A stretch of 54,285 nt of DNA from a virus: IMG/VR virus record IMGVR_UViG_3300011431_000001, positions 1-54,285 of that record; one strand, 5' to 3'. The notes under the pieces were generated by a model. The model saw nothing but the letters and a program-made list of their open reading frames with translations, had not been told where the DNA came from and did not search any database. The position numbers and the translations under genes were made by a program. Shown here one piece after another: positions 14,634 through 25,444 of this stretch (position 1 is the stretch's first letter; every line of letters starts with the position of its first letter).

Positions 14634-14657
14634 TATAAATAATATTCTTTTATTTTT

Positions 14658-14673
14658 ATTTTACTATTGGTGG
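14658..14673 (-). promoter_or_regulatory. Conserved 16-mer (copy 1), 24 nt upstream of the ATG at 14633
   Basis: attttactattggtgg matches attttactattgttgg at 16190-16205 in 15 of 16 positions. Confidence 0.4.
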
Positions 14674-14842
14674 ATATTAAAAAGTAATGCCCCTGGTCTG
14701 GAAGGTTCATCTTTAAAATCTCCTAAGAGAGAGTAAAGCATCCAAACGCAAGGGCGTATTTTGATTAAAATTATTAAGGAACATTAAGAAATTTTAAAGA
14801 TGAACACTTCAAAAATACAACCTTTTATGAAATCACAAAATT

Positions 14843-15028
14843 TCATTTCTTTTCAGTTTCAAATTTTAGTTCGCCTGCAACCGTAGGCCTGCAAATTGAT
14901 TCCACACGCTTCCTAATCTCCTGAAATTTCACCAAGTCCTTTTCCGACAACTTCCCGTCCGTTTGCGACCAGGACGTTAATTTGCCCCTTATATCGCACT
15001 CTATTGTAAAAGAAAAAATGTGTCGCAT
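14843..15028 (-). CDS. Hypothetical protein, 61 aa
   Basis: ORF track. Confidence 0.45.
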   Translation of the reverse strand: MRHIFSFTIECDIRGKLTSWSQTDGKLSEKDLVKFQEIRKRVESICRPTVAGELKFETEKK

Positions 15029-15047
15029 GAATAAATGTTTTTATTTT

Positions 15048-15668: not shown

Positions 15669-15880
15669 TAAAACATATTTTTTTGTTCTGTACTCGTTTT
15701 GAACCTTTCGGGGTCGTAGCCCTTCCTCCGCATCAGCTTGCACAATTCATCGACCTCCTTTTCCTTCTGAATGGAAAGTTTTTTGTCCGCCTGCATCCTA
15801 CGGGCAAAGAAGTCCCGCTGGTGGCCTCTCATCTCTTCGATACGGGCCAAAAGAAGTTCTATGTCGTATCTTTCATTCAT
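15668..15880 (-). CDS. Hypothetical protein, 70 aa
   Basis: ORF track. Confidence 0.5.
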   Translation of the reverse strand: MNERYDIELLLARIEEMRGHQRDFFARRMQADKKLSIQKEKEVDELCKLMRRKGYDPERFKTSTEQKNMF

Positions 15881-15904
15881 TATTTTAAGTGATTATATAC
15901 TTAT

Positions 15905-16162
15905 TCAATCCACTACTTTTTCATAAGAGTTATCAAAAATGTCTGGCTTACACGGATAAAATTCACCCTTAATTCCTTTAATAATCCAATCTTTTACATC
16001 AGCTATGTGATCGCCTTCTAGCGTTGGAATGGTTAATTTGGCTGTTTCTAATGAAAGTTTTGCAGTTCCATTTGTAAATGAAACAATATTGGCTAAAGAA
16101 TCAGCAGTTCCTAACCATTGTTCCGCATCAATTACTACTGGTTTTTTACGATACTTTCCCAT
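15905..16162 (-). CDS. Hypothetical small phage protein, 85 aa
   Basis: MGKYRKKPVVIDAEQW... N-terminus typical of a recurrent small phage family. Confidence 0.55.
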   Translation of the reverse strand: MGKYRKKPVVIDAEQWLGTADSLANIVSFTNGTAKLSLETAKLTIPTLEGDHIADVKDWIIKGIKGEFYPCKPDIFDNSYEKVVD

Positions 16163-16189
16163 TTTGATTGTGTTTTATTGTTTAAGAAT

Positions 16190-16205
16190 ATTTTACTATT
16201 GTTGG
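16190..16205 (-). promoter_or_regulatory. Conserved 16-mer (copy 2), 27 nt upstream of the ATG at 16162
   Basis: attttactattgttgg; see 14658-14673. Confidence 0.4.
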
Positions 16206-16230
16206 TTTTGATATATATAATCTTCTAATT

Positions 16231-17962: not shown

Positions 17963-18591
17963 TGCTCCGTCATAGTTTTTTGAATATTAATAACTCCCAA
18001 ATTAACAAGCTTAAAAAAACATTCTTTTGTCGCTGTCACGTCTGCCAGGGCATTGTGGGCTGACTCCATTTCTTTATCAAACAATTTTTTGTATAATTCT
18101 GATAGCTTTGGGAATTTCCATTCTTTATTTTTCCAGGGACGGTGATCTTTTCCGAAAGGAATTTTGCATACATCCGTTCCCGCTACCATTGTGCAAATCT
18201 TTTGCCTTGCAGGATTGGGTTTGCCTCGTTTGTTATATCGGATCATCTCGCTTCCTAAAACCGGGTAGTCAAATTTTAAATTATGTGCCGCCAATATATC
18301 GCAGTCGTTGTAATCGTTAAAAAAATAATCCAGAACAAGCGGCATCTGTTTCCCTTCAATAATACTTCTTTCCGTAGAAAAACCATGTTCAATCCAAAAC
18401 GGTTCTTTGGGTATTGTCCAACCTTGCGGGTAGATAAGGTGGCATTCCGTTTTTAATACGTTCCCTAATTCATCAGATACTACCCAAGCTACTTGAATGC
18501 AGCGGGGAAAGTTGTCAACCTCCCCTGGATCGGTTATACCCCAATCAATTATTTTTCCCGTTGTTTCAACGTCAAAAAAACAGAATTTCAT
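17959..18591 (-). CDS. DEDDh 3'-5' exonuclease (DnaQ-like)
   Basis: FFDVETTG, AHNLKFDYPVL, HNALADV. Confidence 0.8.
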   Translation of the reverse strand: MKFCFFDVETTGKIIDWGITDPGEVDNFPRCIQVAWVVSDELGNVLKTECHLIYPQGWTIPKEPFWIEHGFSTERSIIEGKQMPLVLDYFFNDYNDCDILAAHNLKFDYPVLGSEMIRYNKRGKPNPARQKICTMVAGTDVCKIPFGKDHRPWKNKEWKFPKLSELYKKLFDKEMESAHNALADVTATKECFFKLVNLGVINIQKTMTEQ

Positions 18592-19220
18592 GCTATTTTC
18601 CTCCTAAGGCGTATTGGTATTGAAATGGCCCTTTCTATATCCCAATTAAGTTCATTAACCCTTCGCCATAATATGCGAGCTCGGATACCTGTGGATAATT
18701 CCAAATCGTAAAAACTTTGAAGTTTCCCATTGAAAAAAATCTTTGCTGTATTTCTCTTATTAAATGAGTTAACTCGTGTTGTAACAAATCGACAATTATC
18801 GGGAGAATAATTACCATCATTATTTCTACGATCTATTTCTAATCCATGTTTCCACGCATTATTAATACACCAATCATAAAAACGTATAAAATCTTTTTTC
18901 CATTCTTCACAGACAATGATGCCTCTGCCTCCATAGTCTTTATATGCTTGGTCTTTTGGATTAGAACACCTACTCTTCATTCCTGTCCACTTAGAATATA
19001 ATGGGTGATCTATAAAGTCATGCTTCCATCTTGAATTACTTATCAATACCCCCTTTTTGCATCCGCAACTTTTTGTAGCCCCATAAGCAAGATTCCCCTG
19101 AGAAACTATTGCATAATTGCCGCAGTCACATAGACAATTCCAGTAGTACTGTCCCTTTTGAATGTGACTAAACGAGACAATAGTTAAAAAATTATATTGT
19201 TCACCCATTCTATTTTTCAT
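18588..19220 (-). CDS. Homing-endonuclease-like Cys-rich protein (paralog A)
   Basis: CLCDCGN...KSCGCKK, YKDYGGRGIIVCEEW, LEIDRRNNDGNYSPDNCRFVT; paralog at 22650-23156. Confidence 0.5.
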   Translation of the reverse strand: MKNRMGEQYNFLTIVSFSHIQKGQYYWNCLCDCGNYAIVSQGNLAYGATKSCGCKKGVLISNSRWKHDFIDHPLYSKWTGMKSRCSNPKDQAYKDYGGRGIIVCEEWKKDFIRFYDWCINNAWKHGLEIDRRNNDGNYSPDNCRFVTTRVNSFNKRNTAKIFFNGKLQSFYDLELSTGIRARILWRRVNELNWDIERAISIPIRLRRKIA

Positions 19221-19221
19221 A

Positions 19222-19449
19222 TTAAGTAAATCGACGGCTTTTTAGATTTAGTGTTATCCCGTAATCATCAACCATGCTCTTTACAACTTTAGTATCAGCA
19301 TTCATTGCCCGCAGACTTTCCACCGTATTAAGTACATCGCAGGCAAAAGATTTCATGATTGAATTAATGATAACTTCTTTTGTTTCTTCGGTTTCCCCGT
19401 TCTTTATTTCGTTCATAAGATGCTTCGATGTCAATTCAAGCTTATTCAT
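19222..19449 (-). CDS. Hypothetical protein, 75 aa
   Basis: ORF track. Confidence 0.5.
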   Translation of the reverse strand: MNKLELTSKHLMNEIKNGETEETKEVIINSIMKSFACDVLNTVESLRAMNADTKVVKSMVDDYGITLNLKSRRFT

Positions 19450-19676
19450 AATCTGATTTGTTTTAATAGTTTATTAATGCCTCTACCATCTTTAATTGTT
19501 TTACCTGTGTGCCAGCCGGAATAAGGGAAAAATTTGATAACCTCATTTCGAAAAATAAATTCGATTCTTGTCGAACATTCAAATGTTATTTTATAGCCAA
19601 GCGATTTAATTTGTTGCTTGGCAAATTCCATTCTTTTTGGCTCAAACTCTTTTTGCCTTTCTATATCCTGCCTCAT
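19446..19676 (-). CDS. Hypothetical protein, 76 aa
   Basis: ORF track. Confidence 0.5.
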   Translation of the reverse strand: MRQDIERQKEFEPKRMEFAKQQIKSLGYKITFECSTRIEFIFRNEVIKFFPYSGWHTGKTIKDGRGINKLLKQIRL

Positions 19677-20008
19677 CCCATTTTATTTAATCTTGAATGA
19701 TTAATCTTAAGTGTCTTGGCTAAGTTTGGATTCAGTTCCGCGAATATGTGATGCTTGCGACAAAGTGCTTTCATCTTCTTTTTATCAGTGTAATTCTTTC
19801 CTACCCTGCCGCTTGCGTGATGTACATCAACCGATTTTTTAGGACACCCCGGCCACTGGCAAAATGGATGCTTTTTTAATACCTCTGCTTTAATCTTGAT
19901 GTACTGCTTCTCTTCAGTTTTTCGTTTGTCAGATTTATCATTAATCTGTTTTGTTCTGACTTTCTTACGTGCAACCTTTTTAATATTTCTGATTTCTTCT
20001 AGTCCCAT
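19673..20008 (-). CDS. Small HNH-type nuclease
   Basis: HPFCQWPGCPKKSVDVHHASGRVGKNYTDKKKMKALCRKHH. Confidence 0.55.
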   Translation of the reverse strand: MGLEEIRNIKKVARKKVRTKQINDKSDKRKTEEKQYIKIKAEVLKKHPFCQWPGCPKKSVDVHHASGRVGKNYTDKKKMKALCRKHHIFAELNPNLAKTLKINHSRLNKMG

Positions 20009-21992: not shown

Positions 21993-22675
21993 TTTAAATC
22001 TATTTCAGATTGACTAATCTTTTTTGATTTCAGTTTTTCTGCTAAGTCAGCAGTCTCTTTTTTTACTTCCTCAGTAGGAACTACAGTCGAGTATGTGTCC
22101 TCTAATTCATCAGCCGAGTGCATACCCATTAAAATGTCAGGAGCATACAACCGCCCGAAAAAGGCTGCTGCACGATAGCGAAACATTAATTCAGGCATGG
22201 TTTTCCATTTGCTGCCAGCTTTATTCAACCAACCTTCAGCCTTTACCATTGACCAGGTTATTTTTGGCCCCTCCAATCTGTCTTTTGTTTGTAGATCGTA
22301 AGCCCATGCTGTGTACCCATAATCATCTGTTCCAAGTTCTCCGCTTACTTCAAACCGGATTGGTGAAAATCTTTTACAGGCATTAAGAGAAGCAATGATG
22401 AAAGATGACGACCATGAAGGCTTACCCATAACGATGTATAAATTTTGCATAACAAGTAAGGGACTGGCTCCAATCCTGTTTGCTAATTCCAATGCTATTA
22501 AAGTATTTTGAACGTTATTTTTATATGTGTCGGGAACTAATGAAGATGAAGCAATCATCTTAGCGATTCTCTGAGCATGTTCAAACCCTGATATTGAAAA
22601 AGCACTTGCTTCAGGAATTGTCTTTTCAGGTTGTTTGTTGTTGTCTGCATTAACTAATGATAGATTCGGTTCCAT
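21989..22675 (-). CDS. Single-strand annealing protein, Red-beta/Bet-like (start at MEPNLS)
   Basis: LVPDTYKNNVQNTLIALELANRIGASPLLVMQNLYIVMGKPS; WKTMPELMFRYRAAAFFGRLYAPDILMGMHSADE parallels the lambda Bet C-terminal region. Confidence 0.7.
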   Translation of the reverse strand: MEPNLSLVNADNNKQPEKTIPEASAFSISGFEHAQRIAKMIASSSLVPDTYKNNVQNTLIALELANRIGASPLLVMQNLYIVMGKPSWSSSFIIASLNACKRFSPIRFEVSGELGTDDYGYTAWAYDLQTKDRLEGPKITWSMVKAEGWLNKAGSKWKTMPELMFRYRAAAFFGRLYAPDILMGMHSADELEDTYSTVVPTEEVKKETADLAEKLKSKKISQSEIDLK

Positions 22676-23156
22676 GTTTTTTTCTTTTATTGTTATTTTG
22701 TTCAATTCGTGTTGCCCATTTGCAATTTTCTTTGTAATAATTATCGTCATTGTCTTTCCTGTCCAAAGTGGTTCCCTCTGGTCGTTTCCCCATGTCAGTT
22801 AAAAAATTTTGAAAAGATTGTAACCAGGATTCGCAAATTATTATTCCCCTACCTCCATAATCTTTGTATTGTTTGTGTTTGATGTCTGTACATCTTGCGA
22901 TCATTGCCCGGTAAGAATGATATGTCGGAGTATTATAGAAACCATGAATGGTTTTTCCATGTTTCATTTTTTCAGACCTAATACATCCGCAGGATTTTGT
23001 ATCATCTCTCAGAAGGCTATGCGATCTTATTGTCGTAATATTACCGCATTCACATTGGCATTTGTATGCGACATGAGGCCCAATATTTGCGCCTCTCTCA
23101 ATGACGATAAGTCTACCAAACTGCCTGCCTATAAGATTTATTAATTGCACGATCAA
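22650..23156 (-). CDS. Homing-endonuclease-like Cys-rich protein (paralog B)
   Basis: CQCECGN...KSCGC, YKDYGGRGIIICESW, TTLDRKDNDDNYYKENCKWAT. Confidence 0.5.
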   Translation of the reverse strand: MIVQLINLIGRQFGRLIVIERGANIGPHVAYKCQCECGNITTIRSHSLLRDDTKSCGCIRSEKMKHGKTIHGFYNTPTYHSYRAMIARCTDIKHKQYKDYGGRGIIICESWLQSFQNFLTDMGKRPEGTTLDRKDNDDNYYKENCKWATRIEQNNNKRKKHGTESIIS

Positions 23157-23461: not shown

Positions 23462-23716
23462 TTAGTTTAATAAAATTGAATCATTAAAAACCATAGGTTT
23501 ACAACTGAATATTTCCTTACGTATTTCGAAATATCTTTTTGCCACTACATAATATCTGCCGTAACCAATAGCCTTCATTTTTATTACCCGGAAACGCTTT
23601 GCATCATGCTTTTGAATGTTTCTGTAATTCTGTGAAGGACATCCAGAACGTGAACTAGCGCAAGATGATAACCAGGCGCAAAACATTAAAAAAAGAATCA
23701 ATTGTATAAGCCTCAT
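23462..23716 (-). CDS. Small lipoprotein (84 aa from the ATG at 23716)
   Basis: MRLIQLILFLMFCAWLSSCASS: signal peptide plus lipobox LSSC. Confidence 0.6.
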   Translation of the reverse strand: MRLIQLILFLMFCAWLSSCASSRSGCPSQNYRNIQKHDAKRFRVIKMKAIGYGRYYVVAKRYFEIRKEIFSCKPMVFNDSILLN

Positions 23717-23740
23717 AAAATAAGTTTTTAATTTAAAAAA

Positions 23741-23774
23741 CCGGGCATGAAAGCATTTCGTACCAGCCGCCCGG
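23741..23774 (-). terminator. Hairpin plus U6 (third of three tandem terminator-like elements)
   Basis: CCGGGC-22 nt-GCCCGG followed by TTTTTT on the minus strand; the loop is large. Confidence 0.4.
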
Positions 23775-23819
23775 TATGCAAGGGGTCCATTATTTTGAAA
23801 GAACTTAATTTTAAAAAGA

Positions 23820-23845
23820 GGGAGCTGGCCACCAATCCAGCCCCC
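23820..23845 (-). terminator. Intrinsic terminator (second of three)
   Basis: Minus strand GGGGGCTGG-attggtgg-CCAGCTCCC, then TCTTTTT. Confidence 0.65.
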
Positions 23846-23888
23846 ATTAAAACGAACCAACATCAATATTTCAAAAAAACTTTAAGAA

Positions 23889-23911
23889 GGGCTGGCCGAA
23901 CCAACCAGCCC
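23889..23911 (-). terminator. Intrinsic terminator (first of three)
   Basis: Minus strand GGGCTGG-ttggttcgg-CCAGCCC, then TTCTTAAAGTTTTTTT. Confidence 0.6.
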
Positions 23912-23953
23912 TATTTCAAACCACCCTCAACCACCTATGAGGTATCTTGAATA

Positions 23954-24117
23954 TTATCGGCGGTGAGGTTTTCCTGTGACTACTCTGCGTCGGGCGCACA
24001 TGGTACAACTTGTTTCACCGATTTAAACCATTTTTATGTGCCTTCTGTGCTATCCTGTTGTTTTGTCCGTGGCTTTCGAGTAAACCCCTGCACATTTCTA
24101 CGGCCTATCGCCGATAA
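23954..24117 (-). ncRNA. Candidate structured RNA (about 165 nt, ORF-poor, visibly more G+C-rich than its flanks); family unknown, strand inferred from context
   Basis: 9-bp closing helix ttatcggcg (23954-62) / cgccgataa (24109-17); competing helix cggtga (23961-66) / tcaccg (24015-20); inner hairpin 23986-23998. Confidence 0.3.
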
Positions 24118-24371
24118 CCGCCAATTATTTGAAAGAACTTTTTTTCTTATTAAAGCTCCCGTAGTGGAAACTAAGGAGCGTAACCAAATCCAATTGCTGT
24201 GAGAAAATTTATCATTAATAGAAAGATTCTGTGTCGTCTAATTTTCTAACAGTAGCTTCCTTTTCTTTTATTATTTTTCTTAAATGGCCTATTAATCTTG
24301 GAATCATGAAGAAGCAAATCCACATTAAAGAAATTGAAATAATAGAAAAAATAAATGTTAGCATTAGACAA

Positions 24372-24656
24372 TCATTTTATCAAAATCCTTTGACAATTAG
24401 TATTCAAAAGGAGTTTGTATTTACCGCCCAAAACGCTTCTCACTTTTTCCAAATCATGAAAATCTTGCCCAAACGTTTCCAGTCCAAATACAACCCCATT
24501 GCGCACATGACGAACCACATTGTAAGTTGCCTTCTGCAATTTTTCTTCAGCAGCTTTTAATTCAGGTGAAATCCTTGATTCCAAAATATTGTAGTGGCAA
24601 ATAATTTCTTCGTTGTCTACGCCGTGAAAGGTTGGTGTATGTTCGATTGTTGTCAT
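24372..24656 (-). CDS. Hypothetical protein, 94 aa
   Basis: ORF track. Confidence 0.55.
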   Translation of the reverse strand: MTTIEHTPTFHGVDNEEIICHYNILESRISPELKAAEEKLQKATYNVVRHVRNGVVFGLETFGQDFHDLEKVRSVLGGKYKLLLNTNCQRILIK

Positions 24657-25335: not shown

Positions 25336-25401
25336 GTTATTAGTACTTTAGTAATGCTTTGTGAATACAACATTACAACTATCTTACAACACCACAAAAT
25401 T

Positions 25402-25444
25402 TTTGAGAAACTATTTTGAAAATAATTTTGAAACAAAGTTTCAA
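25402..25444 (+). promoter_or_regulatory. Bacteroidota-type promoter (TTTG at 25402-05, TAATTTTG at 25423-30) with an overlapping palindromic operator TTGAAACaaaGTTTCAA (25428-44)
   Basis: Motifs read directly; the palindrome spans the -7 box through the A of the repressor ATG; three (T)TACAAC direct repeats lie at 25366-25390. Confidence 0.55.

Follow-up and report, generated by a model that had tools for sequence, protein, structure and literature searches.

We analysed a non-coding interval in a viral DNA of 54,285 nucleotides (nt), IMG/VR record IMGVR_UViG_3300011431_000001, referred to here as the window. These 54 kb make up a nearly complete phage genome, with almost all genes on the minus strand, and the 55-kb ENA contig L083 is identical to it. 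Leftward of a divergent control region the gene order is small early genes, a RecT/YqaJ-exonuclease module, HNH genes and methylases, followed by a DnaB-type helicase, terminase, portal, capsid and tail genes. The interval lies between the small early genes and a lipoprotein gene, beyond which come an open reading frame (ORF) of 58 amino acids (aa), HNH, RecT and the YqaJ exonuclease. A preliminary description of this locus had the early genes end at 24372 and proposed that a G+C-rich structured RNA followed by three terminators gates the delayed-early genes. We found that the early block is longer than this, as a fifth gene runs from 24364 to 24215. Since the early block includes this 49-aa gene, the spacer starts at 24214, and the non-coding interval comprises 24214-23717 (498 nt). 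The features of the locus, in the order of transcription, are as follows.

24215-24364, minus strand: fifth early gene, whose 49-aa product is hydrophobic and membrane-type; the early block ends with it
24153-24180, minus strand: hairpin hp0, GCUCCUUAGUUUCCACUACGGGAGC, with a poor U-run, from the minimum free energy (MFE) fold; precedes DR1; not in the relatives
24124-24140, minus strand: DR1, AAGUUCUUUCAAAUAAU, first copy of a direct repeat, with the boxA-like core GUUCUUUCAAA at 24138-24128
23954-24117, minus strand: G+C-rich tract, orphan and non-coding, 47.6% G+C
23889-23911, minus strand: hp1, terminator-like hairpin of 11 pairs, paralogue of hp2, this phage only
23864-23880, minus strand: U-run of hp1 and degenerate third repeat copy, GUUUUUUUGAAAUAUUG, read from the sequence
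23820-23845, minus strand: hp2, conserved predicted intrinsic-terminator hairpin, 9 pairs followed by UCUUUUU
23789-23806, minus strand: DR2, AAGUUCUUUCAAAAUAAU, second copy of the direct repeat, with its core at 23804-23794
23741-23774, minus strand: hp3, conserved predicted intrinsic-terminator hairpin, 7-8 pairs followed by UUUUUU
23462-23716, minus strand: lipoprotein gene, 84 aa, with the signal peptide ...CAWLSSC; first gene downstream

The fifth early gene was left uncalled by the gene caller on the source contig. Its peptide is 75% identical at the protein level in the related contigs L086/L100 and 69% identical in L093/L097, and the conserved first part of the gene (approximately 33 codons) differs from that of L086 by four nucleotides, every one a synonymous change. 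The C-terminus has diverged from that of the relatives.

Terminator-like hairpins behind the early operon

We scanned the whole window for terminator-like sites, with hairpin free energy and a T-rich tail as the criterion. The three most stable sites on the minus strand are hp1, hp2 and hp3 (-19.3, -16.9 and -15.1 kcal/mol), which together span approximately 170 nt, and no further minus-strand site lies below -14.4 kcal/mol. The hairpins and U-rich runs of the preliminary description (23911 to 23889, 23845 to 23820 and 23774 to 23741) are thus present, and the scan bore out its claim of an exceptional, dense terminator-like cluster that separates the small early genes from those for the lipoprotein, RecT and the exonuclease. 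A simple consensus terminator scanner called hp2 alone among the three.

We found that hp1 and hp2 are related to each other. They align at a score of 30, compared with 13.1 ± 2.1 in shuffled sequences, and the pattern GGCTGG..CCAGC occurs in the window in these two hairpins only, with 0.02 matches expected. hp2 is conserved in both L093 and L086; over three orthologues and hp1 its pairing is kept in 91.7% of cells, and two stem pairs are changed on both sides when the paralogue hp1 is counted. In L093 all eight stem pairs of hp3 are kept and two of them are changed on both sides (A-U to C-G and C-G to G-C), while in L086 hp3 is interrupted by an HNH gene. The paired changes in hp2 and hp3 are consistent with selection on the stems, as judged from a covariation test on 2-4 sequences in which the shuffle controls were not decisive. 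Of the covariation that the preliminary description envisaged for the locus, these both-sided changes in few sequences are the part that was found; the G+C-rich tract is absent from both relatives. These data suggest that hp1, hp2 and hp3 terminate transcription.

The lipoprotein gene follows closely, its ATG at 23716 lying 24 nt past hp3, in agreement with the earlier claim that the downstream genes come directly after the last hairpin. How transcription would reach these genes depends on the promoters available. The predicted host is Bacteroidetes-like because Shine-Dalgarno (SD) motifs are few, promoters are of the TTTG type and the RecT relatives belong to Flavobacterium phages: an SD-like motif of any sort was found in only 6 of 50 genes, promoters of the form TTTG-N17/19-TAnnTTTG are located on both strands of the control region, and the RecT relatives among isolated phages are mostly Flavobacterium phages. 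The control region and its candidate promoters are the following.

25336-25443: divergent control region, with helix-turn-helix (HTH) repressor-like genes on its plus-strand flank
25368-25398, minus strand: best candidate early promoter of the operon, TTTG-N19-TAATGTTG, of the Bacteroidetes -33/-7 type
Within 25336-25443, plus strand: rightward candidate promoter of the control region, TTTG-N17-TAATTTTG, Bacteroidetes-type

A consensus scan of the minus strand revealed no host-type (Bacteroidetes) promoter candidate between 25375 and 20335, the latter being the position of the next minus-strand candidate. We reasoned that the downstream genes need some read-through because this stretch holds no such candidate.

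The extra block and its G+C-rich tract

We compared the interval with that of related phages. The lineage is rare, with three clusters for each flanking protein among 5.8 billion proteins, and two informative variants of the locus were recovered, L086/L087 and L093. A search of JGI metagenomes with a conserved 20-mer of the 49-aa gene returned the same two contigs and chance matches only, and with a hidden Markov model (HMM) of the hp2-repeat-hp3 module no additional copy was found. The 94-aa early gene of L086/L087 is 93% identical to that of the window, and the lipoprotein of L093 is 67% identical. Between the window and L086, L087 and L093, homology detected by blastn breaks off at 24257 and picks up at 23867, which gives the following arrangements.

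23868-24257, minus strand: block replaced by approximately 45 nt in the relatives (from blastn, the alignment and the raw sequences)
Window: 49-aa gene, extra block of approximately 350-390 nt, then hp2; lipoprotein gene directly after hp3
L086/L087: 49-aa gene, approximately 45 nt, then hp2; HNH endonuclease gene inside hp3
L093: 49-aa gene, approximately 45 nt, then hp2; 105-aa ORF directly after hp3

Within the block lie the 3' end of the 49-aa gene, which has diverged, and then hp0, DR1, the tract, hp1 and the degenerate repeat copy. Its non-coding part is approximately 24214-23868. Both relatives keep the orthologue of hp2, the spacer and the orthologue of hp3, and have neither hp0, DR1, the tract nor hp1. 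The tract is therefore dispensable for phages that, like these relatives, keep hp2, hp3 and the downstream genes. Because the cargo varies (an HNH gene, a 105-aa ORF or the extra block), the site is a hot spot for accessory DNA. In L086 (region 2000-2700) the HNH gene enters hp3 after GGGGCGGTAG, and in L093 the region of the 105-aa ORF is 354-684. Within the window three HNH-endonuclease-like genes are located on the minus strand of the early and middle region (22650-23156, 18588-19220 and 19673-20008), two of them in PHROG 374; they are consistent with active homing and mosaicism around the locus.

We next consider the tract itself. Its G+C content of 47.6%, compared with a window mean of 36.5%, places it in the top 1.4% of 165-nt windows, so the description of it as G+C-rich holds. 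It also has no credible ORF, as stated earlier: a comparison with 1.84 billion representative proteins gave no real homologue of the 79-aa ORF antisense to it. The tract is not folded beyond expectation. Compared with shuffled sequences, the folding z-score of the minus strand is -1.1 and that of the plus strand -0.9, and the MFE fold of the tract is a multi-branch structure with a stability on par with the shuffles. The preliminary description had set great store by a 9-bp helix (24117-24109 with 23962-23954) and a competing 6-bp helix (24020-24015 with 23966-23961). Both exist at these coordinates; their significance did not hold up, for a perfect long-range helix of at least 9 bp is found in 36.5% of dinucleotide shuffles of the 498-nt spacer, which is chance level.

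Searches for relatives of the tract were negative. The whole window gave no match in Rfam 15 at gathering thresholds, and with the threshold relaxed to E<=10 the region 23600-24400 gave chance matches only, which were driven by the hairpins; the Rfam search that had been suggested earlier thus yielded no family. ARAGORN found no transfer RNA (tRNA) or transfer-messenger RNA. No homologue of the tract was found by blastn against phages and plasmids, nor by blastn and nhmmer in 80 RecT-anchored viral loci (689 kb). Exact 19-22-mers of the tract gave only coincidences, among the matches listed, in IMG/VR, JGI metagenomes and GTDB genomes: bare matches of 19-27 nt and one 21-mer in three related high-G+C contigs. 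This 21-mer, GGAAAACCTCACCGCCGATAA, lies at 23954-23974 (the 3' end of the tract) and, in L115-L117, in the first codons of a membrane-protein gene. It has no flanking similarity, and we judged it to be coincidental, although its chance expectation is low (approximately 0.03 by a rough estimate of our own).

Other origins of the tract were considered and rejected. With respect to a decayed gene, tblastn of all ORFs of the relatives and of the window gave chance-level matches only, one of them a 16-aa likeness to the lipoprotein signal peptide on the opposite strand (E = 0.01 over several hundred queries). For a phage attachment site (attP), origin or packaging site, no iterons were seen and the terminase gene is far away; among the ORFs scanned against Pfam and PHROGs there was also no integrase. 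No terminal inverted repeats of a miniature inverted-repeat transposable element (MITE) are visible in the sequence.

One explanation of the tract is that it is a cis-acting structured RNA, similar to the put RNAs of HK022 or to a riboswitch, that gives read-through of the three terminators. On the transcribed strand the tract is indeed followed directly by three strong terminator-like hairpins; it is unusually G+C-rich for local non-coding DNA and contains no ORF with relatives, and the genes downstream have no visible promoter. We nevertheless consider this explanation highly improbable. Both relatives that retain hp2, hp3 and the downstream genes are missing the tract; its folding on either strand is matched by shuffles, the 9-bp helix included; and it belongs to no Rfam family even at the relaxed threshold. 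Nor did we find an anti-terminator helix that competes with hp1, hp2 or hp3, the alternative partners being short, weak and scattered. When the 3' arm is blocked, the cost is 11.7 kcal/mol for hp1 and 10.6 kcal/mol for hp2; for hp3 it is 3.9 kcal/mol in the full-length transcript and 6.5 kcal/mol when folding is restricted to the sequence downstream of hp2, so that the costs range from 4 to 12 kcal/mol. Furthermore, the tract is approximately 1.2 kb and five genes downstream of the promoter, whereas put sites are near early promoters (PMC9378689). The proposal of gating by a structured RNA is therefore not sustained, and the tract is very unlikely to be a delayed-early gating device. Gating as such is a reasonable idea, and the gate would be the terminators.

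A second explanation is that the block is an RNA version of a phage moron, namely a trans-acting non-coding RNA of approximately 230 nt that ends at hp1 and either has its own promoter at or near DR1 or is processed from the 3' end of the early mRNA. Presence in one phage and absence in others, together with deviant G+C content, is typical of morons, and the tract, with no ORF that has relatives, is bracketed by hp0 upstream and the strong terminator hp1 downstream. There is also a weak sigma-70-like match, TTAATA-18-AATAAT, that overlaps DR1. This match agrees at 9 of 12 positions, in a scan that yields no more sites than shuffled sequences, and no Bacteroidetes-type promoter accompanies it. 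The tract has no homologues, hence no sign of selection, and no excess structure. We regard an RNA moron as unlikely. The stand-alone small RNA that had been offered as an alternative is not supported, with no recognisable promoter. An RNA derived from the 3' untranslated region that ends at hp1 is possible.

The borders of the block suggest how it may have come about. We found three units of the form hairpin, U/A-rich run and (A)AGUUCUUUCAAA(A)UAAU, which are hp0 with DR1, hp1 with the degenerate copy, and hp2 with DR2. The degenerate third copy aligns only weakly with DR1 (score 17, compared with 13.8 ± 2.5). A plain tandem duplication was rejected, as the sequences after DR1 and after DR2 share no similarity. 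The hairpin-plus-repeat borders fit recombination between diverged phages at shared terminator or boundary sequences. On this basis the whole block could be a functionless recombination scar, with the tract as carried-over junk: the border units are duplicated, neighbouring variants of the site hold unrelated cargo, the tract is an orphan with neither structure nor coding signal, and stem-loop/promoter cassettes that mediate insertions and deletions are a precedent (PMC2839356). Against a scar stand the 47.6% G+C in a 36% genome, which is not the direction in which decaying phage DNA drifts, and the pressure on phage genomes to shed useless DNA. The repeat, with no recognisable promoter and three local copies, is also unlike those cassettes. 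A block with no function at all therefore seems to us improbable.

We also looked for comparable regions elsewhere. Few RecT-related phages have a terminator cluster of this kind; the one inspected, in L029, is located in high-G+C coding sequence and is most likely a false positive. Flavobacterium phage FCV-1 has no comparable region. In L011 (3046-3413, the same as L013; RecT 65% identical) a tRNA-Met, a boxA-like AAAGTTCTTTTAAATAG and approximately 270 nt free of ORFs lie between the early genes and RecT. The ORF-free tract of L011/L013 gave no Rfam match and no homologues in the collected loci, and with a folding z-score of -1.4 it is likewise an orphan that is not folded beyond expectation. 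Within the window itself, ORF-poor gaps of 400-500 nt are found on the transcribed strand at 19221-19672, 14634-15047 and 15744-16230, and the next promoter-like matches, at 19557 and 14817, lie inside the first two.

A duplicated repeat resembling boxA

The direct repeat, AAGTTCTTTCAAA(A)TAAT, is located at 24140-24124 and 23806-23789, as had been described. Its two copies align at a score of 30, compared with 15.6 ± 2.6 for shuffles, and it occurs at this locus only within the window, which is why we rejected a genome-wide promoter or operator. In the hp2-hp3 spacer of approximately 45 nt, AGUUCUU is the sole block conserved in both relatives. A partial motif, TTTCAAAAT, is common to the repeat and to the control region at 25410-25433, with weak statistics; the TTTCAAAAT repeats in the control region are possible operators. 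The 12-mer TTTCAAAATWAT has exact matches at the control region and DR2 only.

The repeat resembles boxA, to which the host factors NusB and S10 bind. When the repeat stretch GTTCTTTCAAA is set against the boxA consensus GYTCTTTAANA (PMC5725501), the core GUUCUUUCAAA agrees at 9 of the 10 specified positions, the consensus being gamma-proteobacterial (PMC5725501) and the host Bacteroidetes-like. A boxA reference nearer to the host was taken from five starts of ribosomal RNA (rRNA) operons in IMG/VR contigs (L109-L113, mostly from sample 3300045988). These leaders have a TTTG...TAccTTTG promoter and a small hairpin, followed by GAGUUCUUUGAGAAAA in the leader of a low-G+C genome or GCGAUCUUUGAACA in the Bacteroides-like ones. 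In Bacteroidetes rRNA leaders the small hairpin is thus followed by G(U/A)UCUUUGA. The core GUUCUUU of the phage repeat is identical to that of the low-G+C leader L109. L109-L113 are catalogued as viral and hold the 5' ends of Bacteroidetes 16S rRNA genes, which suggests cellular DNA within or attached to them. The pattern GYTCTTTNAAA has three matches in the window, all on the transcribed strand, where 0.94 are expected.

By analogy, the repeat might be a cis signal that loads host NusB/S10 for read-through, a possibility that we hold only tentatively. Protein-assisted antitermination, the other half of the earlier proposal, is likewise a possibility, for which the repeat, whose likeness to boxA that description did not note, would be a candidate cis signal. 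The fuller version, in which the duplicated boxA-type GUUCUUUCAAA, set behind a hairpin as in rRNA leaders, loads NusB/S10, with or without an unrecognised phage protein, and carries RNA polymerase through tandem intrinsic terminators into the recombination and replication genes, strikes us as distinctly doubtful. In that version the inserted G+C-rich RNA would be an added module that rides on the second copy of the signal. Several results weigh against a working boxA. In this A+T-rich genome the 7-nt boxA core turns up often, with 9 matches on the minus and 24 on the plus strand. At position 8 the repeat has C, where the Bacteroidetes leaders have G and E. coli has A. Across 291 kb of related low-G+C phage loci, boxA-like motifs are not enriched on one strand over the other, and the FCV-1 intergenic region contains none. 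In the relatives the motif sits after hp2, so it can be of no help to RNA polymerase passing hp2. A 4-bp hairpin, CGGC-GAUAG-GCCG, is found 14 nt after DR1, and it has no counterpart after DR2.

If the repeat does function as boxA, antitermination by Nus factors would reach a further group of phages and hosts, and a Nus-dependent, lambda-like mechanism would exist outside the enterobacterial lambdoid phages. The conserved module of terminator, GUUCUUU and terminator is a compact cassette open to testing.

A probable terminator boundary and known systems

Taken together, our data lead us to favour, with moderate confidence, a tandem-terminator boundary between the early genes and the recombination and replication genes, with a strain-specific non-coding insert at a recombination hot spot. 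The interval would be the 3' boundary of the leftward early operon. Its working, conserved part would be the tandem intrinsic terminators hp2 and hp3, approximately 45 nt apart with the GUUCUUU motif between them, and at these, transcripts begun at the early promoter near 25375 would end or become fewer. Read-through would be the route to the lipoprotein, HNH, RecT, exonuclease and replication genes, because they have no recognisable promoter of their own; we infer that they depend on it. Upstream, the extra block would have brought hp0, a second copy of the repeat, the tract and hp1 (a copy of hp2), with the tract as an accessory, strain-specific non-coding insert. The early mRNA probably includes the tract as its 3' tail and would end at hp1. 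The deviant G+C content and the duplicated borders point to a gain of the block in this phage.

The terminator boundary with an insert has evidence to contend with. Our promoter scans are consensus-based, and a non-canonical or phage-specific promoter may exist inside the repeat. The U-run of hp1 is interrupted (UUCUUAAAGUUUUUUU). The lack of excess folding or of homologues is not proof that the tract has no function as RNA. The comparison rests on two independent relatives, and at this locus L086 and L093 are nearer to each other than to the window, so that one event explains the indel; a loss in the relatives, in place of a gain here, is possible.

The main value of these results is negative, in that the G+C-rich tract should not be catalogued as a new class of regulatory RNA. 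Tandem terminators between an early operon and delayed-early genes are a routine phage feature. To our knowledge, transcription control in Bacteroidetes phages is almost unstudied.

Among known systems, the locus shares several traits with the lambda terminators tL1 and tR1 and their N/nut antitermination. In both, a divergent control region lies beside HTH repressor-like genes, and a short leftward early operon leads through terminators to recombination genes (here RecT and the exonuclease). The 11-nt motif in the transcript also fits boxA at 9 of 10 specified positions. Unlike lambda, the phage has a Bacteroidetes-like rather than an enterobacterial host, there is no conserved boxB, with a small hairpin after DR1 only, and in the relatives the motif comes after the first terminator and not ahead of all of them. 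In addition, no N-like protein was recognised: an N-terminal arginine-rich motif is not evident in the early proteins, no Pfam or PHROG entry matched those of 79, 68, 56 and 94 aa, and no PDB sequence matched those of 79, 68 and 94 aa.

The rRNA leaders offer a second comparison. In these a hairpin is followed after approximately 10-15 nt by G(U/A)UCUUU, and in the phage AAGUUCUUUCAAAA follows hp0 and hp2. The phage hairpins differ in being long G+C stems with U-runs, which are terminator-like; position 8 in the phage is C and not G, and no boxC-like AUUUACAUA follows. Moreover, rRNA-type complexes mainly counter Rho-dependent rather than intrinsic termination.

HK022 put RNA is approximately 70 nt long with two stem-loops, is conserved among put sites, and is placed just downstream of PL or approximately 270 nt after PR (PMC9378689). 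The likeness is conceptual only, in that an RNA element precedes early terminators in a phage of temperate-like make-up. The tract differs in its length of 165 nt, its distance of approximately 1.2 kb from the promoter, its lack of significant folding and its lack of conservation.

Phage morons resemble the block in being an extra segment between two genes, with deviant G+C content and a terminator at the end, that is absent from relatives. Unlike morons, the block has no protein-coding gene and no identifiable promoter. The PeSL cassettes of T4-like phages consist of a strong promoter and a stem-loop, number approximately 50 per genome and mediate indels (PMC2839356). The units here are three, local and with no recognisable promoter, and they share with PeSLs the combination of a stem-loop and short conserved repeat units at the borders of indels among small accessory genes. 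In this respect the hairpin-plus-repeat units can be seen, at base-pair resolution, to serve as recombination boundaries, a role that PeSLs play in T4-like phages.

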